Notes under the pieces: model-generated
The model's input: only the letters and a program-made list of their open reading frames with translations
Databases searched by the model: none
What the model was told of the DNA's origin: nothing
Shown here: one piece after another, positions 4,737 through 36,454 of the stretch
Layout: each line of letters begins with the position of its first letter
Position numbering within the stretch: the first letter of the stretch is position 1
Program-made: the position numbers and the translations under genes
Source of the DNA: an uncultured virus (IMG/VR IMGVR_UViG_3300023176_002901)
Lineage: Duplodnaviria; Heunggongvirae; Uroviricota; Caudoviricetes; Crassvirales
Virus record (IMG/VR): IMGVR_UViG_3300023176_002901
DNA: 64,000 nt
Direction: 5' to 3' (one strand)

Positions 4737-4993
4737 CGTATCTCCCATAAAAAGTCCTCTACCCAGATGGGGGTTCTCTCTCCCATCCACGCGTTGAACG
4801 TATTAAACTCAAGGAACTCGGCGGCCTCTTCTTCGCCCATATCTCTAGCCATGATGGAGATGGCCTTACTGCGTGAGTACACAACGCGGAATGACACCGG
4901 GTCGATACCAATGATGGCGCCGTCTAGTCCGTCGGCGAACAGCAGGCCCTCGTCATCATGCCCGCCGTAGAACTCAACAATCAAGTCCTTCAT
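4733..4993 (-). CDS. Hypothetical acidic protein between groEL and groES
   Basis: 86 aa, 4-nt overlaps with both neighbours. Confidence 0.75.
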   Translation of the reverse strand: MKDLIVEFYGGHDDEGLLFADGLDGAIIGIDPVSFRVVYSRSKAISIMARDMGEEEAAEFLEFNTFNAWMGERTPIWVEDFLWEIR

Positions 4994-6594
4994 TTGTCCT
5001 CGTAGGTTCTAGCCAGCGTAACGATGGCGTTAGTACTCAGTATGGTCGTTGCCACACTCACGGCATTCTTCAGGGCGTTCTTAGTGACCTTCAGTGGGTC
5101 GATGACGCCCATCTTGTACATGTCTCCGTAGACGTTGTTCTTCACATCGTAGCCGTTGTTGTCGTCATCCGACACGTCGAACATAATCTCCGTAGCGTTG
5201 AGGCCGGCATTCTCGAGTATCTGCGTCAGCGGAGCCGATAGGGCATACGCCATTATGGAATACGCGATACGCTCCTCGCTGGAGAGCTCCGGGTTATGTG
5301 ACTGTATGTGGCAGGTGTCCGCCTCGCGCCATAGCGCCAGACCACCGCCGGGGAGTATCCCCTCCTCAAGAGCGGAGCGCACAGCACACACCGCGTCATC
5401 GACGCGGTCAAAAATCTCTTTCTGCTCGACGTCAGAGTTACCACCCACATATATGATACCGATACCTCCCGTCAGGCTAGCAATACGCTGCTTTATGAAG
5501 TCCCTATCACCGCGCTTGGTGGCAGCGTCGTGCGCTTCCCACAGCTCCTTCACTCGTGCGTTGATGTCGTCGCTCTGCCCTTCGTCGCGCACGATTACCG
5601 TGCTGTCCTTGCCGACGATGACCTTAGCGGCGTGGCCGAGGTCTTTCATCGTCACCAAACTTAGGTCATCGCCCATGCTCTCGCTTATGAACCGCCCGCC
5701 TACGCTCACAGCAATGTCACTCATCAGCTCGTGCTGCTTGTATCCGAACTGAGGGGGTGTGATGGTGCACATCTTAAGGCCGTTCTTCACAACGTTCGCC
5801 GCCAGCGTATTACCAACCTGCGTGCTACAGGGGCCTATGATGAGGAGCTTCTTACGGTCCGCCACAATAGGCTTCAGGACCGACTCCACCTGCAAGACGT
5901 TACTAATCTCGTGGTCTGTCAGTAGGATGTACACGTCCTCGAGGATACACTCATCCTTCTTCTGGTTGTTGACGAACAGCTTGTTGTCATAGCCGCGGTC
6001 AATCTTAATACCGTCCGTTACGTCGCAGTATGTGGCCTCGCTCATGCTCTTCTCCACCGTCACGAGCCCATTCTCTCCTACCTTATTGTAGGCCTCCGCT
6101 ATGATACCACCGATGACGGGGTCGTTATTGGCGGAGATGGCCGCCACATCCTTAATCTTACGTGCACCCACCCTACGCGAGCGCTTCTCAAGGGAGCCCA
6201 CCACGTCGTTGGCGATGCGCTGCACCTGCCGGATGACCTCCGTGCTGTTCACCTCGGGGGTGATGAGCGACATACCGCGTACAGCAATGGCCTCCGTCAG
6301 CACAATAGCCGTGGTGGTGCCGTCACCGGCGCTTGTCGCCGTCCTATCGGCGGCCTCCTTCATCATACGAACGGCTAGGTTCTCCACGGGGTCAATAAGG
6401 TCGATGCTCTTGGCAACAGTAACACCATCCTTAGTGACAGTAATCCCGTGGGTATGGTATTGGCTTTCTATCAGCACCGTCTTACCGCGAGGACCGAGGG
6501 TGCTCTTCACCGCCTTGGCGATTGTGGCGATGCCGTTGCCTAATCTGCGACGCGCATCGTCGTCGAACGTAAGGCTCTTTGGTGTGTAGTCCAT
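4990..6594 (-). CDS. groEL: Chaperonin GroEL
   Basis: TLGPRG, TKDGVTVAK, AGDGTTTA, EEGILPGGG and GVIDP motifs; no GGM tail. Confidence 0.97.
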   Translation of the reverse strand: MDYTPKSLTFDDDARRRLGNGIATIAKAVKSTLGPRGKTVLIESQYHTHGITVTKDGVTVAKSIDLIDPVENLAVRMMKEAADRTATSAGDGTTTAIVLTEAIAVRGMSLITPEVNSTEVIRQVQRIANDVVGSLEKRSRRVGARKIKDVAAISANNDPVIGGIIAEAYNKVGENGLVTVEKSMSEATYCDVTDGIKIDRGYDNKLFVNNQKKDECILEDVYILLTDHEISNVLQVESVLKPIVADRKKLLIIGPCSTQVGNTLAANVVKNGLKMCTITPPQFGYKQHELMSDIAVSVGGRFISESMGDDLSLVTMKDLGHAAKVIVGKDSTVIVRDEGQSDDINARVKELWEAHDAATKRGDRDFIKQRIASLTGGIGIIYVGGNSDVEQKEIFDRVDDAVCAVRSALEEGILPGGGLALWREADTCHIQSHNPELSSEERIAYSIMAYALSAPLTQILENAGLNATEIMFDVSDDDNNGYDVKNNVYGDMYKMGVIDPLKVTKNALKNAVSVATTILSTNAIVTLARTYEDK

Positions 6595-7512: not shown

Positions 7513-7967
7513 ACACAAATATACGAATATCAGATGAGTGTAGTGTTTGGGTTATATGCCAGTATACGCGCCGTGCCCCGCGCCGGAAAGCGATTTTTTT
7601 TTCGAGGGGGGGGTCGCGATTTCAAAATTTCCTTGCGGATTTTTGGCGAATCCGTGTTTAAACATGCATCGACAAGGAATTAGATGTTTAAACAAATAAA
7701 TCGAGCATCGGAAATGCGTGTTCAAACAAACAATAATAAACTGCGCACGGGGGGAGCCGTCCTCCCACCGATAAAGAGAAAGCCGTCTCACCTTAGACTC
7801 TTTTCAACCGACCCGAGGAAAGAGAGGTCGGTTAGCCCCTCCCCCGACCTACATCTCCCTTAATTTCCGACAAACTATACTTTTCTGCGTTTTGTAACTC
7901 GCTGATATTCAGTGAGTTTGAAAGTCAGTTCAGCGTTTCATACGCAAAACTTTTTTAATATGCAATA

Positions 7968-8561
7968 GTTGGAAACCGAAACCTTCGTGAGTCCTTTGCA
8001 ATGTCCAACCGACATAGCATGGTCAACGAGCCATGAGGTTGGGGCGGAGATAGGCAACGAGACACTATAGTCCGCAACGCTCTTTGAAATAGCCCGAGGG
8101 GAGATAGCCACGAGGGATGACTGCTGAAGCCGTGAGGAGTACAAGTACCGAACGGAGGCGAGTGGGAGGTGTTCCCTCCTATGAGCCAAGACAATGACCA
8201 CCGCAGATGAGCGCACCATAGAGTGCGATGGTGAGCAATGGACACGAAAAGACACGAGGGAGGCAGTTGTCGCGGATGGGGAAATAGCCGAGGGATAGCG
8301 GTCAGCGATGAGAGGCAAAATTGAAAGCCTCTGCGATGTAGCCTTACATGGTAGAGATACCATAGATGCGAGAGTAGAGCATGGGACACCATGGTACTTG
8401 ATGGTAGCACGGGGTGAGCAGAGACAAGTAGGTAGGTGCCCGAGTTAGAAAAACCGACATAAAGGTCACATGATTGAGGTGGCGGTGCAGTAGGGGTGAA
8501 CCTACCGCATTGTCATTGGGGCGCATGGTGGTCATGAGGGGTTCGTTTCCCCTCCGCCCCA
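7968..8561 (+). ncRNA. Candidate large structured ncRNA (~600 nt), family unassigned
   Basis: No convincing ORF; many hairpins, some with GNRA loops; long-range helix GACAATG(8190-96)/CATTGTC(8508-14); ends in a tRNA-like element. Confidence 0.65.
8518..8561 (+). ncRNA. tRNA-like element 1 (acceptor + T arm, no anticodon arm)
   Basis: GGGGCG/CGCCCC stacked on GAGGGG-TTCGTTT-CCCCTC; linker contains TGG. Confidence 0.65.
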
Positions 8562-8578
8562 CTAAAAAACCAAGAACC

Positions 8579-8791
8579 ATGAAATACATTCCTTCCACGG
8601 ATGACCAATGGATAAAGTTGGTCACCACGAGCCGAAAGTCCTTCGGCAGAGCCTCCACGAGAGGCGCGAACTACCACGCCAAAGAGCGTGGTTTGGTGGT
8701 TAAGAAAAACCGCATTTCGGATGCTATCCGAGAGGCAATAACCGCCGACTATGAGAACACCCGTTTAGTATATGTGTGTCACGCTAAATAA
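8579..8791 (+). CDS. Early hypothetical protein (70 aa)
   Basis: ATG after an A-rich leader directly behind the tRNA-like element. Confidence 0.7.
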   Translation: MKYIPSTDDQWIKLVTTSRKSFGRASTRGANYHAKERGLVVKKNRISDAIREAITADYENTRLVYVCHAK

Positions 8792-8799
8792 TAGAAACC

Positions 8800-8928
8800 A
8801 TGACTATTGAAGCATTAATTCGTGAAGAGTTGGAACATGACTACTACGCCATGGAAACCAACCCAAGGGTCGACAAAGGCATCCTCCGCTTAATGGAGTG
8901 CGTCATTGAAGACATTCAGGTTAACTGA
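8800..8928 (+). CDS. Early micro-protein (42 aa); stop codon lies inside the hammerhead core
   Basis: Hand-read MTIEALIREELEHDYY...IQVN*; A-rich leader. Confidence 0.6.
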   Translation: MTIEALIREELEHDYYAMETNPRVDKGILRLMECVIEDIQVN

Positions 8929-8968
8929 CGAGGGTTCAGTACCCGAAACGCCGTGAGGCGTCTTAACC
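8919..8968 (+). ncRNA. Type I hammerhead ribozyme 1
   Basis: GGTTAA-CTGACGA-GGGT(TCAGT)ACCC-GAAA-CGCC(GTGA)GGCG-TC^TTAACC; full consensus core; predicted cut after C8962. Confidence 0.93.
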
Positions 8969-8983
8969 AAAAACCTTAATCTA

Positions 8984-9622
8984 ATGATTAATGACTTGAA
9001 AGAAATTCGCTTGGTACGAAACCTCCGAGCCGAATACAATCAGCGAGTGCTAAAGCAGTACCGCACCGAGAATTCTCTCATCACCACTCAAGAGACCCTC
9101 CAAGGGGATGTTTTCCTCTCGCACGAACAACGAGTTGGTGAGCGCAGAACGAGCACTCATTCTTACGGCTTTGAGGCGGACAACACTCGCAAGATGCACC
9201 TCCGCAGAACCAAAAACGCCGAGTTGATAGAGTTTAAGTTGGTGTGTGATATCATCACCATTGACTACAACTTTAGTGAAGAGCCTCGTTTCGTTACTAC
9301 GGAAATGTCCGAAGAGACGGCTCAACTCGCACCTCGTATGAAGGTCATTTACGGCACGAAGGAGGCGAAAGCCCTCCGAGATATGGCTCGTATGCAATAC
9401 ACCCTCAAAGACCTCTACAAGGGCAAAGAAACCCAAGGAATTGATGCCCTTGGTGCAATCAAGCCGGGCATCATCATTGACTGCCTCTCGGAATTGGTTG
9501 AACGAGCAGATGCTGTCTGCGAGTGGGGCACGATATGGGATGCTAAAGATGTTGCATACAAACTTGAGGAAAAGGTTGACTTCCAATTCAAGACGCCGAC
9601 CTTGAATTTCAACGCCAAATAA
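8984..9622 (+). CDS. Early hypothetical protein flanked by the two hammerheads
   Basis: 212-aa ORF, no recognisable motif. Confidence 0.8.
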   Translation: MINDLKEIRLVRNLRAEYNQRVLKQYRTENSLITTQETLQGDVFLSHEQRVGERRTSTHSYGFEADNTRKMHLRRTKNAELIEFKLVCDIITIDYNFSEEPRFVTTEMSEETAQLAPRMKVIYGTKEAKALRDMARMQYTLKDLYKGKETQGIDALGAIKPGIIIDCLSELVERADAVCEWGTIWDAKDVAYKLEEKVDFQFKTPTLNFNAK

Positions 9623-9627
9623 GCAAA

Positions 9628-9680
9628 GGTTAACTGACGAGTGCTTTAGTAGCCGAAACCGCCTCCGGGCGGTCTTAACC
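9628..9680 (+). ncRNA. Type I hammerhead ribozyme 2
   Basis: GGTTAA-CTGACGA-G[T]GCT(TTAGT)AGCC-GAAA-CCGCC(TCCG)GGCGG-TC^TTAACC; predicted cut after C9674. Confidence 0.92.
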
Positions 9681-9695
9681 AAAAACTCTAATATC

Positions 9696-10634
9696 ATGAC
9701 AAAGACCGACATCTTTGAAAAAGTAAAGCAGACCCTCATTGAGGGCATTGAAAAGGACGGCTTGAATTGGTTCAAGCCATGGAAGGATTCACGAGGCGGT
9801 GGTTTGGACGATTGGCGTCCTATCAACCGCAAGACGGGTCAACCCTACAAGGGCATGAACATTTGGTTCTTGAGTTCAGCGATGCGTGACATGGGCTATG
9901 AGCACAACGAGTGGCTCACCTATAAAAACGCACAAGAGTTGGGCGGTAGTGTCCGCAAGGGCGAGTCCTCTACCGAGGTGTTCTTTTGGAACATTGGGTA
10001 TTGGAATCCAACTACCAAAAAAGCCTACAAAAGCATGGCTGATGCCCTCGCCAAGGGTGAGAGCAAGGAGGACATCAAAGAATTCTTCTCGCTGAAGGTT
10101 TGGAATGTGTTCAACATTGCTCAATGCGATGACATTGAGCCACGCAACCCAAGCCAACCCATTGAGCCCGAGGAGGAGAATATCTTCAGCCCTATCGAGG
10201 AGGCGGAGCGCATCATTGCCGAGTGGGACACAAAGCCTCGCATACAACACGGAGGCAACTCGGCTCACTATAGCCCGAGCATGGACTATGTGCAGATGCC
10301 CGAACCAAAAAACTTCGTGGACGGGGACTCTTATTATAAGACGCTCTTCCATGAGTTGGTGCATAGCACGGGACATGAGACGCGCCTCAAGCGCAAAGGC
10401 ATCGTGGAGTTTGATAAATTCGGCTCCGACCGCTATGCGATGGAGGAGTTGGTCGCAGAGAGCGGTTCTATGATGTTGACGGGTCTTGCGGGACTCAACC
10501 CGAAGGATTCCGATGACAACTCGGTTGCCTATGTCAAGAATTGGTCGAAGCGACTCAAGCAAGAGCCAAGCAAGGCGATTGTTGGAGCGCTGACTCAATC
10601 AGCCAAGGCTGTTGAGTTAATCATGGGCAAGTAA
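9696..10634 (+). CDS. ardC: ArdC-like antirestriction / ssDNA-binding protein with zincin-like domain
   Basis: W.KPW, P.N..TG.PY.G.N, WLTYKNAQELGG.VRKGE, VFN.AQ, HELVHSTG and YAMEELVAE motifs. Confidence 0.92.
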   Translation: MTKTDIFEKVKQTLIEGIEKDGLNWFKPWKDSRGGGLDDWRPINRKTGQPYKGMNIWFLSSAMRDMGYEHNEWLTYKNAQELGGSVRKGESSTEVFFWNIGYWNPTTKKAYKSMADALAKGESKEDIKEFFSLKVWNVFNIAQCDDIEPRNPSQPIEPEEENIFSPIEEAERIIAEWDTKPRIQHGGNSAHYSPSMDYVQMPEPKNFVDGDSYYKTLFHELVHSTGHETRLKRKGIVEFDKFGSDRYAMEELVAESGSMMLTGLAGLNPKDSDDNSVAYVKNWSKRLKQEPSKAIVGALTQSAKAVELIMGK

Positions 10635-10642
10635 GCCCGAAA

Positions 10643-10686
10643 GGATGGATGGTCGCAGAGGGGGTTCGACTCCCCCTCCATTCCCA
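10643..10686 (+). ncRNA. tRNA-like element 2 (acceptor + T arm, ends in CCA)
   Basis: GGATGG/CCATTC stacked on AGGGGG-TTCGACT-CCCCCT, then CCA; linker ATGGTC. Confidence 0.65.
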
Positions 10687-24877: not shown

Positions 24878-24950
24878 GCGCCTTTAGCTCAGTGGTTAGA
24901 GCAGTGGACTCATAATCCATTGGTCGTAGGTTCAAATCCTTCAAGGCGCA
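24878..24950 (+). tRNA. tRNA with CAT anticodon, probably tRNA-Ile2 (lysidine) rather than Met
   Basis: Cloverleaf, loop CTCATAA, C4:G69 and C5:G68 pairs, discriminator A; one T-stem mismatch; CCA not encoded. Confidence 0.85.
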
Positions 24951-24954
24951 CACC

Positions 24955-25027
24955 GCCCCCATAGCTTAATGGATAGAGCAACGCACTTCTAATGCGTAGG
25001 TTGCTGGTTCGACTCCAGCTGGGGGTA
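24955..25027 (+). tRNA. tRNA-Arg(TCT)
   Basis: Cloverleaf with ACGCA-CTTCTAA-TGCGT anticodon arm; CCA not encoded. Confidence 0.92.
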
Positions 25028-25063: not shown

Positions 25064-28000
25064 CTACTCTCCAAGCATAGCCTTTCGGTACGCCTCAATC
25101 TCCTTATCGCTTTTCTTCTTATCTCCTCCTTCTATAACATAGTCAGAGTAGTTGAAGAGCCTGAGCAACGCCTCGCCCGGGTCCTTTGAATCGGGGATGG
25201 CTTCGATATTCTTAACCATCTTGTGGATGTTAGAAGCAGGGATGCCCGTCAGTTCTGTGATGTGATTAATCATTCTCCACATGTACTTATCCTTCTTCAC
25301 TGGGTCAGTAGCCTTGGTGAATGATTTGATATCCTTAAATACCAATCCAATCTGCTCGAATACAGGGAGCGTAGTAAATTCTCCAGCCCACGGAGCGCCA
25401 CTAACGAGGTCCTTGACTGCCGTAAGAATATCTCCAACAATAAACAAGGCGTTGAGGTTGCCAAGCAATGCCGCACGGCCAAGTGCCTGCTCATCCTCCT
25501 CATCCCAATCGGAAAGTAATCCGGGAAGGCCGAGGGCAACCCATTGGAACACCATAGGAACAAGGATGTGATATGTCACTACTCGTCTTGCGATATCACC
25601 ATATCCGTCCTGTGTTGGTAGACCCTTCATCTTTCTACTTAGGCTCATGAAGGCGCTCATCTCTCTGCGAAGCAACGCCTTTGGTGAAGATAAGAACACA
25701 TTCAAGAATCGGTATGCAGGGCCGCCAGTTTGGAACCAGTCCTTGTTGGTAATGCCACTATCTTGCTGCGTTCTGAGTGCCTGTTTAGTCGCCTTTTCGC
25801 TCGCATACTTCTGAGCCCCAGCCTCGTCACCGGGATTCTTCTCCAAGTACTGCTGCTTGTAGTACAAGTAGTTAGCAAGACCACCCATGATACCACCCTT
25901 GTCACCCTGCTTAACCAAGTACATGAGTGAGTTCATTAGGTTTCTCGTCTGCTCTTTTGTGACTGTAATATCCTTGCCACCTACCTTTTTATTTACAAGG
26001 ATTGGAGACTCATTGAGAGAACCCTCATAGCTGTATCCTTCTAGGATATCTCCAATGTTTGAGTTCTCATATCTCTCCTGAAACAGGGGCGAGTTAGCAT
26101 ACCACTCCTTCCATAGTTTGCGAGCCTGAGGAAGAGCGAGGGCAGTGTACTTACTCCAGTTTGTGTAGCCGATATAGTCAGCAAAGGCAAATGCAGAAGT
26201 GAGCTGCTTCAGGAATACCGTTGGGTTGATGGCAAGCTTAGACTTGATATACATACCCATCATAGCATTGGCAAGCTGAGATTCGTTTTGAGAGATTCCC
26301 TTTCTTGCAACCTTTTGCATCATGTCCTTCAGAGCGTCGTATGTATTCTTACCACCGAGCTCTATGATTGCTGCCTTTACGTTCGCATTGTCAAGAACCT
26401 TGCTCAGGTCTCTCATGGCCTCAGCATAGGCACGGAAGTATTCCATGTCTTTGAGGTATGAGTTGAGCACCGAGTTGCCATCGACACTTTGAATGGGACG
26501 AGAGTTCTTTACCCTCGCCTTGGTAGACTGGCCACCAACGCTGGTCTGGTATTCAGAAGAGCCGGCCAGTAAGTCGAACTGAAGGTCGCCCTCTTCGCCC
26601 TCTCTAAAAATTCTGCCTGCATAGAACTGATTCCATGGCATGTTGGTTCTATAGATGGCCTTGTATACCTCGTTGTATTTTTCATACAGGCTGGGATACA
26701 GCTCGTTAACCTGCCAGTCTGCCCACTCTTTTGTCTTGGCATCAAGTCTGTCGGTAATCTGCTGCATGATTCTAGCATACTGGTTCTTACCAAACTTCTT
26801 CTCAAAGGATGCCACATTAGCGGGGTCCTTGTATTGATTATACAAGTAGTAAGCTTGGTTATTACTGAGAACAACCTCAAGCTTTTCAAGCTGTCTAATT
26901 ATCTGCGCCTTACGTTTGTTGGTGGCAGAGTCGTATTCCTTCTTCAGCTCATTAGCCTTCTCCTCGTTAAGCCATATGACATTCTTGTCATTGATGAGGT
27001 CTTTACTCACAACAGGCACAGCATTACGCTGCATCTCAAGCTTGTAGTTATCGCCCCATATCTCCTTGGCTTTGTTGCTGATGATATCAAACACTTGTTT
27101 CTTGCCAGAGACAAAAGAAACTCGAGCCTTGAAGAGCCTGTCATCAAAGATTTCCATGAGCTTGTTGCCGCCCATGGCCTCAGACAGTCCGCTTGATATT
27201 CTTTGAAGCAATAGAGCGAGGTCCATTTGCTTGGTGAAGAACTCATCCACGCTGTTCTTTATCTTACCAACAAAGGACTTAATACCTCCATCAAAGGTCT
27301 TCCTTCTCTGCTCCTTGTTCTTAAGTTCTATAAGCTTCTCCTTGTTAGCCTCTTCACCCTCCTCGGAAAGGTCGAGCTCCTCACCCGTGATGCCATTGTA
27401 GGCGTCAGATATAAGATGCTCATAGTAAGCACGTTGAGCATCAATCTCTCCGCGCATCTGCGAGCGACCCGTAGATATAAGAGTACGGAGGTTGTCTCTC
27501 ACGGCAGCAAGGGCGTCTACCTTATGCGGGTTGTTATCCTCCATAAGCATCGCCTCGTTGTACATAAGAGCAATAGAGAGCGCGTTCATCTCGTCGCTCT
27601 CTTCCTGCGTCAGCGCGGTCTTTACAGACAGCTTATTGAATCTCTTCTCCTGCTTCTGCATTAGGTCCTCAATGTTCTGAGCAGACATACCCTCATCTAC
27701 GAGCATTGGGCTCTTCTTATTGGTAAGGGAACCAAGGATGTTCTGCAAGGACACGCTTACTCTGCCCACTCTACGACCCGATACCATTCTAGTGGTGGGG
27801 GTCTTCAGGAGTTTGTCAATAGCAGCACTTAGGTCACGCACATAGAACTCGTTGACGAATCCAGTGACGCGCTCCATCACTGCGGGCAGTGAGTCTGGAG
27901 TGGCGTCTGTGATAGCCTTCATCAGCTTGTTGACATCAGCCTTATTGAATACGGTCTTAGGCAAGTTCTTGCGGATGAACATGCGCATAGCGCGCTTAGC

Positions 28001-31000
28001 TTTTTCAAGTTCAGCCGCGCCCTTCTTCATGTTGGAAAGCATCGCACGCAACGCCTTGAAGTCCGCTTGGAACTTCTTGTTGGCGGCGGGGATGTTCAAT
28101 GCCTTGTCCAATCCAATCTGCATCTCCGCCTGAATGGTTGGGCTCTGCGCTTTAAAGAAATCAGAGTTAACCAACAGCTCCTGAGCCTTGGCTCTTACAT
28201 CCGCAGCGTTGTGTAGCAACACGCCCAATCTCTTGGCATTAGCATAGCGCTTAATCTTCTTGGTCAACTCGTTGAAGAACGCCTGACCCTGAGCAACACC
28301 GCCCTCCGCATTGGCGAAGCCATCGGGGAGCATAGTGCCCATCACATCGATAGGCACAGCGAGTGCTGACTTAATCTCGGTGGCGCTGTATCCCTGCTCC
28401 TTCAAGAAAGCAGCTATAACTCTATCGGTGTAGCCCCTCTCGCGCACATCATTGATGAACTCGTAGATGCTCTGCGTTCCGGCGCCATAGCCTTGGCGGC
28501 GTAGTGAGTTGGCGCTTCCGCCCCCGCCAATAACTCTAAGGAATGGGTTGAAGAACTTCCCATCCAGCGTCATGTGGTAACCGGAGACCTCACCGGTGCG
28601 CTCATCACGTCTAGGCTTTGTGCCGAGCCTGTCATCAAGCTTGCGCACAGCGATTCTAAACTGAGCGGGGTCGGTAGTAGCGGGAACAAATCCCTTATGG
28701 TTCATATTAAAGCGGTGACCTAGCTCCTGAGCCTGACTCTGAGGCTTAGCGCTCCAGTTCTGGTATGCAGTGGCGTCGCCCCTCTTCTGACGGATAGCGG
28801 GAGGTGGTTCAACGCCAGCCTCTGCCCTTAGGTATTCACCGTGGAGTCTCTGTATATCATTAAAGAGCTCTTGACTTATAAATCCGTCTTTAAGCTCTTT
28901 GCGTGCTAAAGAATATCTTTCTGGGTCAACGCTCTTAGCCAAGAGATTGCCAGAGCTTTCCAGATACACACTGCTAATAAATTCACCATGGTCATCCCCG
29001 GCTATTTCCTCAATACTTCCGAGCGATTTCACTCTACTTGAAGTTGAAAAAAACGAACCGCCAACCGTAACTAGATTTGATATGACAATGGGAGTCGAGC
29101 CGGGACCCTCTTCTGAGCCTTCCCAAATAAGTAGGCCTGAAGCAACAGTCTTGAGCTTTCCGGTATCCTTGAAATTTTCTGACGGCTTAAACTGTAACCC
29201 GCCACCCACATATTCAAGGTCGCCAAAAGAATCTACTTCTACATTAATGCTAACTTCTCCGGAGACGCTTCTTAAAGACCCAAGATTTATAGCGTGACCC
29301 GCGTAATCGTCTGACGCCGAAATGGTCAAATAATTTACAGTTTCTAAAGCCCCCAAGTCAAACCCTGAATCACCTAAGCGGACTCTAAGAGAACCGACAA
29401 TTTCTTTTAAGTGTGGACCAAGGGTTCTTAGTGTTTTATTGTCAGTTATTTGTAACGACCCTTCAAGTTTTTTTAATTTACCTAGGTCCCTCAGTCTTGA
29501 TTTCTCTCCTATCACAATTGGGCTTGACCTAACAATTTCCTCAAGTTCTCCAAAGCTTTCTAAAGTATCCGGAACCCCGTATTCAAAACGTCCAAGACGC
29601 TTCATCTTGCCAAGCGTTATTATTGAAGGCGGTAAATTTAAATCCCCTTCAACAACCTTCAACTCCCCAAGAGACATTAATTTTTGTGCATATGACAAAT
29701 CAAGATTGTCACCTACACGCTCTAATTTACCAAGAGACTCAAGCTGCCCTGCGCTATACAAGTTAACATTATCTTGGACAGTGGTTAAATTGCCAAGGCT
29801 TCTTATGTCGTTTACTATATGCACACCTTGGTCGACACTTGTTACTCCTATATGAAAATCTAAGGAGTTTTCTTGTATGAATAAATCACCGCCAACTAAC
29901 TCAATATTACCGGTGCTGTTTTTATCATATATGGTTGCGTCCCCTTCAACAGTTTTTAAATTAGCGGGGATGAGCTGTGACTGTTGGTTGTAATGTCCCG
30001 CGATGACCCTCAAGCTTTTAGCACTATTGGAGATAGCGTTTGAAACCATTCGGACGGCCCCCTCTTCGCCATACGCCTCAACGAGGCTTGCAAAAATGTC
30101 AAACGATGTAAAGCTCCCTCCCGAATAGAGCACTACATAGTCTGTAGCATGCGACACATAATCGGATGGGTCCTCGTTATTTATCGCTTCACCGAATAAC
30201 TCAAACACCCTAGCTTTTCCTTTTATCTCAAGCCTGCTGCCAATTTGCTTCCCATCTCTCATGGCCTCTATCGCCGCAGCTTTTAAGCCCATACGAATTA
30301 AATTGTCGCCATAAAAGTTTCCAATAAGAACCTCGGTCTCCGGGGTTAATTCTTCCATGCCTCGGGCAACTTTTCCTTTTATCTCAGGAGCAACATCGTT
30401 AGCATCAATCTTTAAATTAAAGTCCTCATTGAGTCGCTCGACGAAACCATTTCCCCCATACTGCATGAAGCTGTATCGGTTTGCTTCAGCAGTAAGGCTA
30501 GATACCGTTCTAAAGTCCTGCAAGGTTAAAGGGCGCTTCGATATCTCCTCCCTAAACATCCTTATCTTTTCGTTGAAGCGCTGCCCCTCTGCCCATTTCT
30601 CACCGCCCGGAACGGCGCCACTTTCCAAGAACTGCTCAGCTACAGGGCGCATCTTTGGCTCCATCTGTTGTCCTTCAAGGATACCTCGCACCTCTTCAAT
30701 GCTTCCTCTTCTTGTTCTTACGGCAATACGGGCTTTTGGCACGCCGCCTTTATCCGTTGTTACAAAGACATAGAAATCGCCGCCCCTAAGCTGCCCTTCG
30801 GCTCCGGTCTTTGTGCACCATGGCGTATCCTGAACAAGCTGACTTAAGGCGTCTGCGTTGTCATTAATATCTTGCTCACTAACACCGTCGCCACCGGGGA
30901 ACTTAAGCCACGTGCCCTCAGCGGTATCGTACATCTTAAATGCCTTAACAACATTGGGCGCGTTGGCCATCATCGTCTCAACGTATTCTTTTAATACTGC

Positions 31001-34000
31001 GTCTGATGATATGGTCTGCTCGCCAACCATTCTACTAATGGTGCCCTCGTCGTATGGCGTGTAGTTACGAAGAGTTTGGCGATTTCTCTTTTTGTAGCTC
31101 CCTGTTCTAGCGTCGTAGTTATGTGTGACGACAGCATCGAAAAGCATCAAGCGAATGGCGGGGGGTATACCGATTTCATGTTGTAGAAAGGCTGCCCATT
31201 TCTTTATAGTGTCATCTTGAGTGACTTGATATTCGTTTAGCACACGCATTCTGTGATAATCACTTTCTGCCTTCTCTTCAATTTCCGCAACCGTTTTCCT
31301 ACTGAGACCCATCCGGTCTGCTTCTTTTGCCTGACCAAGAATATCTTTGGTGATGTTATCGCCATCGTATATTTTAAGAAAGTCAATTATATAACTATCA
31401 GTTTGGTTAACCTGTGCGCCTATAGCAAACGCTATAGATTCTAGAAATCTATATACAGCCTGTGCTGGAGAGCTGCTTTTTGGGAATAGGCGGTTGGCCA
31501 ATAGGATGACAGCATTAACATCTTTGAGATTTGTTTTTTTAACGTCTGCCCTATTAACATCGGCGGATGTATCTGAATCAAATAATAGGCTATCTAAAAC
31601 CCTTTCAACAATGCCTTCGGCTCTACTCGCTTGAAGGATTTCTTCGCTGGTGGGCTCTACTCCATCTTTTTTATAGCCCATTGCCGTGAAAAAGCGACCG
31701 CTATCTTCAAGAACTGGAAGTATCTCCCCCAGCATCTTAATGGCTTCCTGCTGGTACTTCTCTTGGATACCAGCCTTCTGATACTTAATGCCTTCAGTCG
31801 GAGTGATGGTAATCAATCCCTTCTTCTGACGCATAGCGTTCTTAGTTTCAAGGGTCTGAGGTGAGCGCTTCATGCTTTGCGCACCATCATAAGCTACTCG
31901 AGTAACAGAGAATCCAAACTTCTCATAGAACTTAGTCAAGTCCTTGGCCATCTTTGCGAGCTTGGCTTCAGAATACTCTTTACGAGTTACCGGGTCTCCT
32001 TGATATCGCTTTGTTGGATACGCATCAAGTTTAATAGTCAGGCCAAGTTTATCGGCGGCTGCCGTAATACGATTCATTAACCTAGTGCCAGCTCCAGTTC
32101 CAGCAAGCCTTGGGTCAAATAATTCAATGCCATCTATGTATATAACATTACCCTCTTTAGGGCTGATACGTATGTTCATTTCAAGCTCCGGATTCTCAAC
32201 CGAAGTGTCCATAGTCATAAATCCACCCCGCATAATAATGCTTGGGAATATGTGGAAGTCTGGGTCGTTTGCCATTTCGGCAAACAAGTTGGCTACATTG
32301 TTGTAAGGCTGATAGAATTCTCTACGCCAATTGAAATCCTCATCCATGAAGTACACCCTCACTTCGTCCGCGGTAAGAGCATCATCGGTACTTGTTGGAT
32401 ATGGTTTTCTTCCCTTTCTGTTCAGGCTTTCACGAGCCTCCTCGTTGGTCATCGCCTTCTTCTGACGAAGTGCTGGCTTCTTGACCTTGATGTTCTCGAT
32501 AGCCATCTGCTGCTCTCCCGTAAGCTGAGCTGCTGGGAGGGCATCTTCTAGAGTAATGACCGTGGGCTCCTCAACTATATCGGTAGGAATCTCAGCGACA
32601 TACTGAGCGCCCATGGCGGAGCGTGCAGCCTGAGGCTTCGCTCTTTCTCCAATCTCTATCTGAGGACCGGTTACTGGCTTGGCCTTGGGATATACTTTGC
32701 GCACATCCACGGCCTTATCGAACACCATTATGGGTGTCCCCTCAATAACAAACGGATAAGAGGGGTGGGTATCCATTCCCTCCTTGCGGGTATCGATTAC
32801 CTTGCTGTCCTTATTGAACTGAATAGCAGATATAATATCTCCATATTGTACCTTCTCAAGAGATGGGTCGTTGACATAGTCAAGAACGCCCGTCTTCATC
32901 TTTGCCGTTGGCATCAATGGCGGTATCCCAAAGCGCTCATAAGAGGTGGCAGAGAAGAACGACTTAGTGAATGCACCACGAGTGTCATATGAGATTACTC
33001 CCTTGCCTTCAATGGGCATAAGGTCTCTCAGGTCTTCCAAGGTTTCTATTTGTCCCTTGTGTCCTTTCTTCTCTAGCTGTTCGGCAATAGTAACGCCGGG
33101 AGTTCTTGATGCTGTTCTAAGTTTGGCGTTGACATAGTCAATCAATTCCTGTGGAGACGCGCCCTTCATGACGGCGTTCTGAATTTCCGCCATTAGATAT
33201 TCATAAAAGGAAAGGCTACCAGCAATACCATCAGAAGCCTGAGACATCACCAATCCTACACCATCGCTCTCTTTTACTTTCTTTAGAATCTTGTTGGCTG
33301 CCGTCTCGCTAGTAAACGCCCAGCCCATACCGCTACCATAGGGGTATAGGTATCCACCCTTGAAGAAGTATCTCGTTCCAGATGGGCTCTCAATTTCACC
33401 ATAGGTTGCTTGGTCGGCTGCAAATACAAACGCATTAGCGCCCGACAAGTCGTTGATGCTACCGCGCTTGATAGCCTCTATGTCGATGCCACCTCGGTTA
33501 AGCTGCTGCTTGCGTGTGGCGTTTATGTTTATAGAATCTGAGCCCTTCTCATTAATGTTCTCAGCAACAGTGCCAGATGCGACTGTTGAGCCGGGCTCCG
33601 CAGCGCTATCAAGAACAACGAGGTCAGCCGCTACAATCGCCTTGCCTCTCGCAACCTTGCGGGCGAGGACGTCAAGCATAGCGGTTACGCTCTCGTCGGT
33701 TTTACCAAACTCAGAAGGAAGAGACACATTGAATGCTCTCGCCAATCGCTTAATAAACTCTACAATCTGTCCCTTAACCGTCGACGTTGCGTTGACGTAC
33801 TCTCTAGACAGCGCACCCATGAGCTGAGCGAGGCGCTCCTCATTCTGGAAGTTCTCGTCGTAGTTCTGTGCGAAGGCATCAATCTCTTTTGCTAGGGCAC
33901 TGTCATCCGCAAGAGTCTTGCGGACATTCTCCATCATGGTCTTGGCCACAGCCTGAGCCTTGGAGTCCGTTCTAACCTTGTTCAAGAATATAGCATGGAA

Positions 34001-36454
34001 CACCTCGTGCGCTACCGTGCTTGCGTCCGCTGTCGCAAGGTTGATATGGATTACGCCATCGTTGTAGGCGCCCTCATCTGTCGCTGCTGTTCCGGTGTTC
34101 TTAGAGAACTCCTCGCCTGTGGCGTGAAGTATAATCTTCACATCGGGCAACAGCTTTTGAATGGCCTTAGCTCCACGAACGGCGAGCTTCTCAATGCGAG
34201 TCTGCTCCTTAGTGAGTGGCTGTGCGCCCGTCTCATTAACGACCAGATTGTCGGAGAGCTTTCTACCCCCCTCGAATACGGCAGCAACCTCTTCATTTGT
34301 GGCGGCAGCTACTGGTGCTTGACCAAGCGCTTCAGCCTTGAGGTCTTCGAGTTGTTGTTGCTCCTCCTCAGTGAGGGTTACTTCTTCTTCGACACGCGCT
34401 TCGGGAGCGACTTCAGGTTCTGCTTGGGGTGCTCCTTCCGCCACTTCTTCGCCAACTCTGGCTTCTGGCTGAACAGGAACTTCACTTGTTGCTTGCTCTT
34501 GAATGGCATCTTCTTGTGATTTTGTATATAGTTCTTTTATCTTCTCATCAATCTTAGCGACCTTTTCTTTTGCTATAGACTGAACCGCATCGTCCTTACC
34601 GGCGACCTTTTCTAAAGTTAACTGCTTTTCTCTTACGAGATTAAACATCTCTGCCTGAGCTTCCTCCGGCATATCCTCGGGGATTTTACCAAGAACGTCA
34701 ATGAACTCATCAACATTGGCAATCACCCTATCACCTTCGGCTCGTTCCATCTTACCAGCAGCAACCTGTTGGTCGATGTACTCAGATACTTTTTCTCTTT
34801 TAATTGCGCCAACAAATTCCTTGGCCTGCTTGAAGTCTTCTGATGTAACACCCTCAGGTCTAGAGAATGCACCGACTGTTCCAGCTATAATGCCACCGCC
34901 AATAGCTTCTTGAGCTCCGGCATATAGCACGTCCATCACAATTTCTTGTGCGGTCTTTGGCTTGAAAATATTCTTGCCTTGAGAGTCGGTTACATATTGA
35001 TTAATCAAATCATTTGACAACTCCTGAAGAGCACCCGTCTCAAATTCAGAGAGGCCACCCTTTGTAATCTTACTGGCGTATCCCCTTAATCCCTTGGCTT
35101 CTTGGCGAACAACTCTTTCAAAAGCCTCGGCTCCCACGTCTTCGCCCATTCCAGCAAGTCGGGTAAGAACCTTACCCGCCAAAATTCTTTTCACCATGGG
35201 CATCCCATTCAGGGTGTTTCTCAAACCAACTCTTTCAAGTATTCCCTCAATGCCAGCGGTGGCGAGTAAGTATGTTTGTCTTTGAGCCTCAGTCATTTGA
35301 AGGTCTGGATTCGCAGCAAGCTCATTTGCTAATTGCTCTTCCGCCGCCTGATAAGACATGTCCATAAAAGATAAGCCCATCGTAGAAGCAGATGTTGCCA
35401 TCGCGGGCAACGAGGTCATTAGTCCACGAACGGCACCCGAAAAGAATCTATCCTGAAGCTCTCTCTCTTTTCTTTTATCAATGGCGTATCCAGCCTTTTT
35501 GATAATTTCCTCTCGGCCCGCTTCCTTTATATATGGTAGAACTTCATTCTCAATACCCTTGTCTACCGTGGCAAAGTATTCCATGTATGCCGCATTGGCC
35601 GCAAGGGCATCTGAGTAGCCATCATCAATGGCCTTCTTATACATAACATATAAGTCGGGGTGCTTATCTTTTTTGTCCTCAATAAAGCGAGCAATCACCT
35701 GACCGTTCAGTGAGTTCTCTTCTCGGATATTGTTAACCCAGTTTCCAAATCCCTCAATGAGACCGTTCCACTTGTCGCCAACCCACTCTCCAGCAGTAAC
35801 TTCTACTGGCTCAAGTAATTCTGATTTATCCTCTTTGGGTTTTACTAAACCTTTTACTACTTGGTTAAATGCAACAAATGGGGCGGCAAGCGTTGGAACC
35901 TCTGGAGCCTTTATCTCCTCGGGTTGCGGCATCTCAACGGCGCCCTCTTCAATGCGACCCTCCATAACTGCCTGAGCCTCTGGAGATATCCCTTCTTCGC
36001 CAGCAATAGCGCCGGTCTCAAGGTCCATAGTAATGCCCTCCTCGGTAACAACCTCGGTTGGTCTAGTCTCATATGGCACAGGAATGGGCTGCTCTTGTGG
36101 AGCAACACCGCCCGCCTCTTGGATAGCCTGCTGCGTCTGTGGCGCTAAGCGTGGAGACGGGGGGAGTGTAAGGTCACGCCCGGGTAAAGAAGCCAAAGTA
36201 GGCGTCTCCATAGGAGAAGCCAACTGCTCTTCTTGAAAAGAAACCTCTGAAGGTTCTTCTTTTTTTTTTAATGGAGCATACTTTACATCGAACTCTTCAC
36301 GCCCTTTGGTATATAAGCCGTCTCTAGTTACAACACCAAATACTTTATCTCTATATTGTGGGTCTTCGTACTTAACTATAAACTCTTCATATGAGTTGGT
36401 ATAGTAACCCTTAGATACGAGGGTGTCGTATAACTTTTTGAGCTCGTCATTCAT
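25064..36454 (-). CDS. Giant modular internal virion / polyvalent protein (zincin HExxH, GNAT-like, PcfJ-like, LRR-like solenoid)
   Basis: 3796 aa; AHEVFH near 34000; GTGAGTRLM acetyl-CoA loop near 32090; PWCT...RIAVR...EVRG near 30800; L..LG.L..V.G.L repeats at 28950-29980; last of three internal-protein genes after the tail genes. Confidence 0.8.
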   Translation of the reverse strand: MNDELKKLYDTLVSKGYYTNSYEEFIVKYEDPQYRDKVFGVVTRDGLYTKGREEFDVKYAPLKKKEEPSEVSFQEEQLASPMETPTLASLPGRDLTLPPSPRLAPQTQQAIQEAGGVAPQEQPIPVPYETRPTEVVTEEGITMDLETGAIAGEEGISPEAQAVMEGRIEEGAVEMPQPEEIKAPEVPTLAAPFVAFNQVVKGLVKPKEDKSELLEPVEVTAGEWVGDKWNGLIEGFGNWVNNIREENSLNGQVIARFIEDKKDKHPDLYVMYKKAIDDGYSDALAANAAYMEYFATVDKGIENEVLPYIKEAGREEIIKKAGYAIDKRKERELQDRFFSGAVRGLMTSLPAMATSASTMGLSFMDMSYQAAEEQLANELAANPDLQMTEAQRQTYLLATAGIEGILERVGLRNTLNGMPMVKRILAGKVLTRLAGMGEDVGAEAFERVVRQEAKGLRGYASKITKGGLSEFETGALQELSNDLINQYVTDSQGKNIFKPKTAQEIVMDVLYAGAQEAIGGGIIAGTVGAFSRPEGVTSEDFKQAKEFVGAIKREKVSEYIDQQVAAGKMERAEGDRVIANVDEFIDVLGKIPEDMPEEAQAEMFNLVREKQLTLEKVAGKDDAVQSIAKEKVAKIDEKIKELYTKSQEDAIQEQATSEVPVQPEARVGEEVAEGAPQAEPEVAPEARVEEEVTLTEEEQQQLEDLKAEALGQAPVAAATNEEVAAVFEGGRKLSDNLVVNETGAQPLTKEQTRIEKLAVRGAKAIQKLLPDVKIILHATGEEFSKNTGTAATDEGAYNDGVIHINLATADASTVAHEVFHAIFLNKVRTDSKAQAVAKTMMENVRKTLADDSALAKEIDAFAQNYDENFQNEERLAQLMGALSREYVNATSTVKGQIVEFIKRLARAFNVSLPSEFGKTDESVTAMLDVLARKVARGKAIVAADLVVLDSAAEPGSTVASGTVAENINEKGSDSININATRKQQLNRGGIDIEAIKRGSINDLSGANAFVFAADQATYGEIESPSGTRYFFKGGYLYPYGSGMGWAFTSETAANKILKKVKESDGVGLVMSQASDGIAGSLSFYEYLMAEIQNAVMKGASPQELIDYVNAKLRTASRTPGVTIAEQLEKKGHKGQIETLEDLRDLMPIEGKGVISYDTRGAFTKSFFSATSYERFGIPPLMPTAKMKTGVLDYVNDPSLEKVQYGDIISAIQFNKDSKVIDTRKEGMDTHPSYPFVIEGTPIMVFDKAVDVRKVYPKAKPVTGPQIEIGERAKPQAARSAMGAQYVAEIPTDIVEEPTVITLEDALPAAQLTGEQQMAIENIKVKKPALRQKKAMTNEEARESLNRKGRKPYPTSTDDALTADEVRVYFMDEDFNWRREFYQPYNNVANLFAEMANDPDFHIFPSIIMRGGFMTMDTSVENPELEMNIRISPKEGNVIYIDGIELFDPRLAGTGAGTRLMNRITAAADKLGLTIKLDAYPTKRYQGDPVTRKEYSEAKLAKMAKDLTKFYEKFGFSVTRVAYDGAQSMKRSPQTLETKNAMRQKKGLITITPTEGIKYQKAGIQEKYQQEAIKMLGEILPVLEDSGRFFTAMGYKKDGVEPTSEEILQASRAEGIVERVLDSLLFDSDTSADVNRADVKKTNLKDVNAVILLANRLFPKSSSPAQAVYRFLESIAFAIGAQVNQTDSYIIDFLKIYDGDNITKDILGQAKEADRMGLSRKTVAEIEEKAESDYHRMRVLNEYQVTQDDTIKKWAAFLQHEIGIPPAIRLMLFDAVVTHNYDARTGSYKKRNRQTLRNYTPYDEGTISRMVGEQTISSDAVLKEYVETMMANAPNVVKAFKMYDTAEGTWLKFPGGDGVSEQDINDNADALSQLVQDTPWCTKTGAEGQLRGGDFYVFVTTDKGGVPKARIAVRTRRGSIEEVRGILEGQQMEPKMRPVAEQFLESGAVPGGEKWAEGQRFNEKIRMFREEISKRPLTLQDFRTVSSLTAEANRYSFMQYGGNGFVERLNEDFNLKIDANDVAPEIKGKVARGMEELTPETEVLIGNFYGDNLIRMGLKAAAIEAMRDGKQIGSRLEIKGKARVFELFGEAINNEDPSDYVSHATDYVVLYSGGSFTSFDIFASLVEAYGEEGAVRMVSNAISNSAKSLRVIAGHYNQQSQLIPANLKTVEGDATIYDKNSTGNIELVGGDLFIQENSLDFHIGVTSVDQGVHIVNDIRSLGNLTTVQDNVNLYSAGQLESLGKLERVGDNLDLSYAQKLMSLGELKVVEGDLNLPPSIITLGKMKRLGRFEYGVPDTLESFGELEEIVRSSPIVIGEKSRLRDLGKLKKLEGSLQITDNKTLRTLGPHLKEIVGSLRVRLGDSGFDLGALETVNYLTISASDDYAGHAINLGSLRSVSGEVSINVEVDSFGDLEYVGGGLQFKPSENFKDTGKLKTVASGLLIWEGSEEGPGSTPIVISNLVTVGGSFFSTSSRVKSLGSIEEIAGDDHGEFISSVYLESSGNLLAKSVDPERYSLARKELKDGFISQELFNDIQRLHGEYLRAEAGVEPPPAIRQKRGDATAYQNWSAKPQSQAQELGHRFNMNHKGFVPATTDPAQFRIAVRKLDDRLGTKPRRDERTGEVSGYHMTLDGKFFNPFLRVIGGGGSANSLRRQGYGAGTQSIYEFINDVRERGYTDRVIAAFLKEQGYSATEIKSALAVPIDVMGTMLPDGFANAEGGVAQGQAFFNELTKKIKRYANAKRLGVLLHNAADVRAKAQELLVNSDFFKAQSPTIQAEMQIGLDKALNIPAANKKFQADFKALRAMLSNMKKGAAELEKAKRAMRMFIRKNLPKTVFNKADVNKLMKAITDATPDSLPAVMERVTGFVNEFYVRDLSAAIDKLLKTPTTRMVSGRRVGRVSVSLQNILGSLTNKKSPMLVDEGMSAQNIEDLMQKQEKRFNKLSVKTALTQEESDEMNALSIALMYNEAMLMEDNNPHKVDALAAVRDNLRTLISTGRSQMRGEIDAQRAYYEHLISDAYNGITGEELDLSEEGEEANKEKLIELKNKEQRRKTFDGGIKSFVGKIKNSVDEFFTKQMDLALLLQRISSGLSEAMGGNKLMEIFDDRLFKARVSFVSGKKQVFDIISNKAKEIWGDNYKLEMQRNAVPVVSKDLINDKNVIWLNEEKANELKKEYDSATNKRKAQIIRQLEKLEVVLSNNQAYYLYNQYKDPANVASFEKKFGKNQYARIMQQITDRLDAKTKEWADWQVNELYPSLYEKYNEVYKAIYRTNMPWNQFYAGRIFREGEEGDLQFDLLAGSSEYQTSVGGQSTKARVKNSRPIQSVDGNSVLNSYLKDMEYFRAYAEAMRDLSKVLDNANVKAAIIELGGKNTYDALKDMMQKVARKGISQNESQLANAMMGMYIKSKLAINPTVFLKQLTSAFAFADYIGYTNWSKYTALALPQARKLWKEWYANSPLFQERYENSNIGDILEGYSYEGSLNESPILVNKKVGGKDITVTKEQTRNLMNSLMYLVKQGDKGGIMGGLANYLYYKQQYLEKNPGDEAGAQKYASEKATKQALRTQQDSGITNKDWFQTGGPAYRFLNVFLSSPKALLRREMSAFMSLSRKMKGLPTQDGYGDIARRVVTYHILVPMVFQWVALGLPGLLSDWDEEDEQALGRAALLGNLNALFIVGDILTAVKDLVSGAPWAGEFTTLPVFEQIGLVFKDIKSFTKATDPVKKDKYMWRMINHITELTGIPASNIHKMVKNIEAIPDSKDPGEALLRLFNYSDYVIEGGDKKKSDKEIEAYRKAMLGE

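Follow-up and report, generated by a model that had tools for sequence, protein, structure and literature searches.

Two hammerhead ribozymes bracket one small gene in the genome of an uncultured phage, and this arrangement raises the question of what would become of the RNA between the two predicted cuts, i.e., whether it would serve as a linear single-gene mRNA or would close into a stable circle, as the initial annotation had proposed. We addressed this question computationally in a 64,000-nt stretch of DNA (the window), which is nearly the entire virus record of 65,418 bp. The genome codes for terminase, portal, virion proteins, primase/helicase, and GroEL, and a Sak-like annealing protein and exonuclease VIII are also among its genes. 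Matches of the terminase are to phages of Flavobacterium, Cellulophaga, Tenacibaculum, and Maribacter (46.5% identity to Elemovirus and 75% to an uncultured record), so the predicted host is likely a member of the Flavobacteriia. Small plus-strand genes form a run ahead of the replication genes, most likely the early region, and the hammerhead locus is found close to where this run starts. Features elsewhere in the window include a phage-encoded GroEL-type chaperonin (4990-6594, minus strand), two tRNA genes (24878-25027, plus strand), and an ORF of 3,796 aa (25064-36454, minus strand). Before the first early ORF lies a long purine-rich stretch (~7950-8517, plus strand) without a convincing plus-strand gene, which opens with a motif common to a related locus (L308, 3660-4290) and over which RNA contigs of two metatranscriptome runs (X2 and X1) reach a depth of 11-13, compared with 2-5 close by; it is possibly a non-coding leader RNA. 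A sigma-70 scan for promoters gave counts no better than chance.

Both ribozymes are type I hammerheads on the plus strand, having CUGANGA/GAAA cores, three helices, an NUH triplet, and an open stem I. In the upstream copy (HH1, 8919..8968; predicted cut 8962/8963), the 6-bp stem I pairs GGUUAA (8919-8924) with UUAACC (8963-8968), the core comprises CUGACGA (8925-8931), GAAA (8945-8948), and UC (8961-8962), stem II (8932-8944) has 4 bp and a UCAGU loop, and stem III spans 8949-8960. The downstream copy (HH2, 9628..9680; predicted cut 9674/9675) carries an identical 6-bp stem I (GGUUAA 9628-9633 with UUAACC 9675-9680), core elements at 9634-9640, 9655-9658 (GAAA), and 9673-9674 (UC), a stem II (9641-9654) of 4 bp with one bulged U and a UUAGU loop, and a stem III at 9659-9672. 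Thus, the two hammerheads with identical stems I are present as first annotated; on both strands of the window they are the sole full type I hammerheads, and 300 shuffled windows gave no match. They score 64-66 bits against a family model whose alignment contained both copies, and identical copies occur in two assemblies of other collections (L001 and L608). Rfam at its curated thresholds missed HH1 and HH2. Identical 15-nt repeats mark both ends of the two copies, and repeats within 8000-10500 are confined to these ribozyme ends.

Hammerhead chemistry leaves termini bearing a 5'-OH and a 2',3'-cyclic phosphate. Double cleavage is predicted to release a 712-nt RNA (8963..9674, plus strand), composed of a 21-nt leader, a whole 212-aa ORF, and most of HH2; the release of this single-gene unit, also put forward by the initial annotation, is well founded as a prediction from both cut sites. 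Upstream, a 42-aa ORF (8800..8928, plus strand) has its TGA stop (8926-8928) inside the HH1 core. The leader after HH1 (8963..8983, plus strand) is A-rich and lacks a Shine-Dalgarno sequence; it opens with the 6 nt that form the 3' strand of stem I. The 212-aa orphan ORF (8984..9622, plus strand) stops 5 nt ahead of HH2 stem I. A second A-rich leader of 21 nt (9675..9695, plus strand), whose first 12 nt after the cut are identical to those after HH1, precedes an ArdC-like anti-restriction gene (ardC, 9696..10634, plus strand; Pfam ArdcN and MPTase-PolyVal, PHROG 7245). Single-sequence and profile searches recovered four relatives of the 212-aa protein at 73-84% identity (five sequences in all), and it matched no family in Pfam or PHROG. 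Its AlphaFold model is unreliable (pLDDT 46), and Atlas TM scores were below 0.5 by query.

Hammerheads arranged around a single gene are a phage layout already known since 2011. Perreault et al. (PMC3088659) described hammerhead clusters around single prophage genes, proposed single-gene processing, reported cleavage of clusters in vitro and of one cluster in vivo in E. coli, and noted ardA downstream of hammerheads. The window resembles the clusters described there in that hammerheads of one orientation enclose a single gene or a short gene block and an anti-restriction gene follows a hammerhead (ardA there, ardC-like here); at least two co-oriented intergenic hammerheads surround one phage gene, and the flanked genes are not constant. 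A 2019 review (PMC6765202) treats the processing of polycistronic transcripts by hammerheads as suggested but unproven. Type I ribozymes in the 5' UTRs of RNA viruses of fungi and plants, as described in PMC13725137, likewise cut just upstream of an ORF and are linked to translation rather than to circles, but they concern cap-independent initiation in eukaryotes and not bacterial translation.

Here, too, the hammerheads probably punctuate an early transcript, yielding mainly a linear 712-nt single-gene mRNA and an ardC mRNA. Established here are the motifs, the covarying family to which they belong, and their position, with a stop codon on one side and an A-rich leader on the other; the course of events that we propose from the sequence is as follows. 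A long early transcript would be cut at each hammerhead motif, and each mRNA would begin with a 5'-OH 21 nt before its AUG. Downstream genes would each gain a standard short leader. For each upstream gene, the stem III hairpin and a cyclic phosphate would cap the new 3' end, and the stability and translation of every gene would be set individually by these processed ends. Stem I overlaps or abuts the stop codon upstream of it and the leader downstream, so that ribosomes would open it, which would couple cutting and product release to translation. Since the freed 5' end may re-pair with HH2, by-products are expected in the form of a closed but nicked molecule and of a minor, reversible fraction of ligated RNA, which its own junction hammerhead would cut again.

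The wider family of this hammerhead bears on these proposals. A search pattern with the stem I of the window copies fixed matched ~550 IMG/VR stretches, and one with stem I nearly free matched ~1,700; 130 were fetched for each. The fixed-stem-I sample was left out of the compatibility counts, for which we pooled 287 loci with the inner stem I unfixed and, after dropping duplicates, overlaps, and some loci without a passing hammerhead, retained 204 distinct loci with 320 copies, among which related phages are not independent. The family has a fixed form, namely, a 6-bp stem I with an A on both flanks (conserved in 313/320 and 297/320 copies), a 4-bp stem II with a 5-nt U-N-A-N-U loop, and a free stem III. 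Across 71 aligned copies, both partners vary at 11 of the 15 pairs, in 317 cells altogether; these copies were pre-selected for full stem I pairing, and the percentage paired is thus not an independent measure. The nearest Rfam model is the RAGATH-1 hammerhead (RF03152), which shares the type I topology, a similar core, a short stem I, and an A-rich flank, but has an extra 5' hairpin and a 1-bp stem II that are absent from the phage family. RAGATH-1 is the best Rfam match for one relative (L295), at 32 bits against a gathering cut-off of 56.3, and gave no match to the window copies at E values up to 10.

The place of the ribozyme relative to genes recurs across the family. An ORF of at least 30 aa starts 8-75 nt past the cut in 286/320 copies (median leader, 25.5 nt), and in 155/320 copies the 5' strand of stem I ends in TAA, likely a stop codon. 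For some relatives an ATG lies 1-6 nt past the cut, but mostly a later ATG with a ribosome-binding site exists, and we rejected leaderless starts. Leaders without a Shine-Dalgarno sequence follow 32/39 GGUUAA or GAUUAA stems versus 37/109 other stems (p=2e-7), and the stem is therefore a lineage or host trait. The downstream genes vary, with just 57 homologous pairs among the 320 copies. Arrays of 6-10 family hammerheads per early region occur in four loci (L156, L171, L570, and L606); in the L171 array, stems I are mostly mismatched between copies. The cultured Flavobacterium phage elemoC 13-1C has one copy, with a stem I other than GGUUAA. A BLAST search for cultured phages with a tandem pair returned only the single-copy Elemovirus motif, besides short, unvetted matches to Pelagibacter, Streptomyces, Prevotella, and Caulobacter phages. 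A scan of GTDB prophages gave mostly chance matches, although ~15 copies in 11/120 loci passed the structure filter.

We then compared the slot upstream of ardC in 68 relatives of this gene, 63 of which have enough upstream sequence. Our script flagged hammerheads in 3/63, one of them the same phage, and the family model added L308; altogether, a recognisable hammerhead is absent upstream of ardC in all but ~8/63 relatives. L308, the closest ardC relative (64%), has a lone type I copy directly before ardC, with HH1-like stems II and III, and L295 has a mismatched type I pair. Type III hammerheads precede ardC in L296 (37 bits in Rfam, below the cut-off) and in the near-identical L314 and L321. 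By eye, a type III form was also recognised in L281 and a type II form in L304, and L290 has a pistol ribozyme one small ORF upstream of ardC. In most of the relatives no ribozyme could be recognised; where a ribozyme is present, the ardC relatives share a cut before the gene and not a matched pair. The relative with 75% terminase identity has no hammerhead of this family; by eye, its corresponding boundaries carry a tRNA-like element and a palindrome that is repeated. Since this relative has none of the family and most ardC relatives no recognisable hammerhead, the cut is not obligatory.

Several other elements were noted at such boundaries. In the early region of MW202828.1 (L610, 13740-15920), a 16-nt palindrome centred on GTTAAC sits at several gene boundaries before A-rich leaders, at the places where hammerheads sit in the window phage. 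L265-L276 and L285 share a conserved motif, CACAAUAA ... CGUUAACACUAUAG, ~30-95 nt upstream of ardC, in the slot that ribozymes occupy in other relatives, and in many cases a GGGGAG hairpin comes after it; the motif has no match in Rfam and is a candidate for an unrecognised ribozyme or processing element. In L263 and L264, ~20-95 nt upstream of ardC, an HH2-like GUC-UUAACC and A-rich leader follow a hairpin, with no hammerhead core upstream. Rfam likewise gave no match for the L263 and L270 motifs upstream of ardC.

The window itself contains a second kind of boundary element. Mini tRNA-like elements lie at 8518..8560 (plus strand), before an ORF at 8579, and at 10643..10683 (plus strand), 8 nt past the ardC stop. 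Each has an acceptor stem, a remnant of the UGG loop, and a T-arm, without an anticodon arm, and each precedes an A-rich leader. Hammerhead and ardC loci, totalling 5.3 Mb with both strands counted, yielded 22 unique elements of this kind, including the two of the window phage, compared with 1 in shuffles; they occur also in L182, L185, L007, L012, L052, L063, L281, L284, L290, and L321. Rfam has no family for them beyond weak matches to the T-arm of tmRNA. A weak PreQ1 riboswitch match at 8532-8579 (29 bits versus a cut-off of 39) overlaps the first element and is probably due to chance. The elements are likely processing signals that host RNase P and RNase Z could cut. ardC is therefore bounded by a hammerhead on one side and a tRNA mimic on the other, a combination that cannot re-close as a hammerhead, and the tRNA mimics and hammerheads together fit a general punctuation of early transcripts.

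The main alternative is the one favoured by the initial annotation: the rebuilt hammerhead or host RtcB would ligate the released RNA into an abundant, stable circular mRNA, for which the matching stems I would have been selected. We regard this as unlikely. The geometry is exact, and the rebuilt junction would retain the conserved flanking A residues. In ViennaRNA, the 5' UUAACC pairs with the GGUUAA of HH2 with a probability of 0.05-0.14 (20-37°C), and closure costs ~1.6-2.1 kcal/mol; the native hammerheads in the precursor reach at most 0.04 in the same model, and this lower value arises because the fold model omits tertiary energy. Re-closure of the released RNA is therefore feasible, both sterically and thermodynamically, in this model, and the annotated re-pairing that rebuilds a hammerhead across the junction stands as a possibility, but the step from there to a stable circle is unsupported. 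The rebuilt junction is a complete hammerhead, and ligation would thus be reversible and the circle recut. Typical hammerheads are reported to ligate at ~0.01/min and to cleave at 1/min (PMC12118343). One natural hammerhead, that of Schistosoma, is reported to be about one third ligated at equilibrium, whereas that of sTRSV is strongly cleaved (PMC2553840). A circle is accordingly expected to be a minor fraction unless ribosomes hold the junction open; initiating and terminating ribosomes could indeed keep it melted and trap the circle. As for RtcB, the phage genome has none; the enzyme is present in the control genome of Bacteroides thetaiotaomicron, but joining by RtcB would also be undone by recutting of the junction. 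We rejected rolling translation of a circle, since its 712 nt cannot be divided by 3 and it would still contain stop codons, the longest stretch free of them being 242 codons.

Circles have precedents in other systems. Tandem hammerheads of retrozymes and of satellite and viroid monomers, as described in PMC7761336 and PMC6765202, similarly set free a unit that has a 5'-OH and a cyclic phosphate at its ends and is able to re-form a junction ribozyme, and type I retrozymes are reported to form circles in animals (PMC7761336). In contrast to the window unit, a coding gene that occurs only once, within an operon of a DNA phage, those units are described as mobile or replicating repeats, non-coding for the most part and with extensive self-pairing, which are mostly joined by a host ligase (PMC7761336, PMC6765202); the window shares with retrozymes the tandem compatible hammerheads but not the repeated, mobile, non-coding unit. 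A circular non-coding RNA has been reported in Bacillus (PMC10504365). Perreault et al. raised circles and spliced products and stated that neither was detected in the clusters they tested (data not shown; PMC3088659). Our literature search, which covered few subscription papers, returned no report of a natural, phage-made coding circular mRNA.

RNA evidence came from contigs of six (X1-X6) of eight metatranscriptome runs, aligned to the locus; five metatranscriptomes contain part of the window. The contigs contained no back-joints or skip-joints at the hammerheads, at a depth of ~2-5 over the unit that is too shallow to count either way; gaps in the cover of X2-X6 likewise carry no weight. 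X1 contigs span both cut sites at a depth of ~5, representing uncut RNA or DNA carry-over. One X2 and one X5 contig, from two studies, end at 9678, 4 nt beyond the HH2 cut; because the precursor and a circle share the 12 nt past the cut, stops at this position cannot distinguish them. Another X2 contig, at 8924-8963, carries the hammerhead of a different organism, with HH1-like stems II and III and a different stem I.

In the pooled loci, the compatibility of stems I showed no bias of adjacency or direction: full cross-pairing was found for 64/116 neighbours versus 77/137 non-neighbours and 62/116 in the reverse direction, forward-only compatible pairs numbered 12 versus 10 reverse-only (p=0.83), and the order permutation gave p=0.16. 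Among single-gene units in relatives, 32/53 are fully compatible and 21/53 are not. Full re-closure is possible in 55-60% of units versus 9.5% between loci (4,821/50,787). Many solo copies bear the same stem I as clustered ones: a single copy was present within the fetched range at 144/204 loci (45/71 where 2.5 kb on each side was available), and GGUUAA/UUAACC, the commonest stem I of the family (49/320 copies), occurs at 23/144 single-copy loci. In a survey of 50 whole records, chosen by us and scored with a model that detects only this hammerhead family, one copy was found in 8/16 records at least 90% complete, two of these with GGUUAA.

Stem I is nevertheless preferentially homogenised within genomes, a signal that circular closure predicts and that is not fully explained away. 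Its within-genome scaled similarity (0.60) exceeds those of stem II (0.32), stem III (0.31), and the leader (0.28) (Wilcoxon p=0.002, 0.0006, and 5e-6, respectively; 50-60 loci). However, at orthologous sites in different phages (38 pairs, <90% protein identity) stem I is conserved to 0.80, whereas stem II reaches 0.63 and stem III 0.52; the stem I value is on par with its conservation within genomes (0.76). Because stem I is equally conserved between phages, slow evolution suffices as an explanation, this long-range helix having sequence in common with a stop codon and a leader. Pairs of solo orthologues gave 0.75, 0.70, and 0.57 for stems I, II, and III, but these (n=10) are too few to argue against selection in clusters, and selection for re-closure would yield the same within-genome excess. 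We consider it similarly improbable that, in a subset of phages, genome-wide matching stems I make early genes self-closing circular mRNAs whose junction is kept melted by ribosomes. Taken together, the lack of adjacency or direction bias, the mismatched units, the recutting junction, and the missing phage RtcB speak against the annotated exonuclease-resistant circular mRNA as a stable species.

A related proposal dispenses with the covalent circle: stems I would be interchangeable for non-covalent or reversible re-pairing, and a nicked closed form would hide the ends from nucleases. The within-genome excess of stem I likeness, being independent of order and direction, suits such interchangeability better than one-way closure, but at about -5.6 kcal/mol the AU-rich duplex of 6 bp has little stability, passing ribosomes would open it, and at least one mismatched neighbour pair occurs in 35/60 multi-copy loci; we doubt that this is what the matching stems are for. 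An extension in which fragments swap partners or rejoin out of order, e.g., skipping the 212-aa gene, appears to us to have an equally slim chance: spliced products were named as a possibility by Perreault et al. (PMC3088659), but the shallow RNA contigs hold no skip-joints.

Finally, it is very unlikely that the hammerhead and leader act mainly as a DNA-level cassette boundary for gene gain, loss, and shuffling by the recombinase, with cleavage secondary and each gene arriving with its own stop and leader (an arrangement compatible with transcript punctuation). Against this reading, the catalytic core and all three helices are maintained, with covariation, and many copies are solo. In its favour are the repeats at both ends of the two copies, the annealing protein and exonuclease VIII, the variable flanked genes, and the HH1-like ribozyme directly before ardC in L308, which would suit a gain or loss of the 212-aa unit; the last likeness is weak, because HH1-like stem II and III sequences recur across the family.

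Punctuation of the early transcript by hammerheads thus remains the reading that we prefer, with a linear 712-nt mRNA as its probable main product. Beyond this locus, a compact type I family matching ~1,700 viral stretches falls below the Rfam cut-offs and has, in elemoC 13-1C, a cultured single-copy carrier. If circles were to dominate, the 712-nt unit would be a natural coding circular mRNA of phage origin. The purpose of many self-cleaving ribozymes in phage early regions is described as still open (PMC6765202), and the present locus provides a clean test case for their role.
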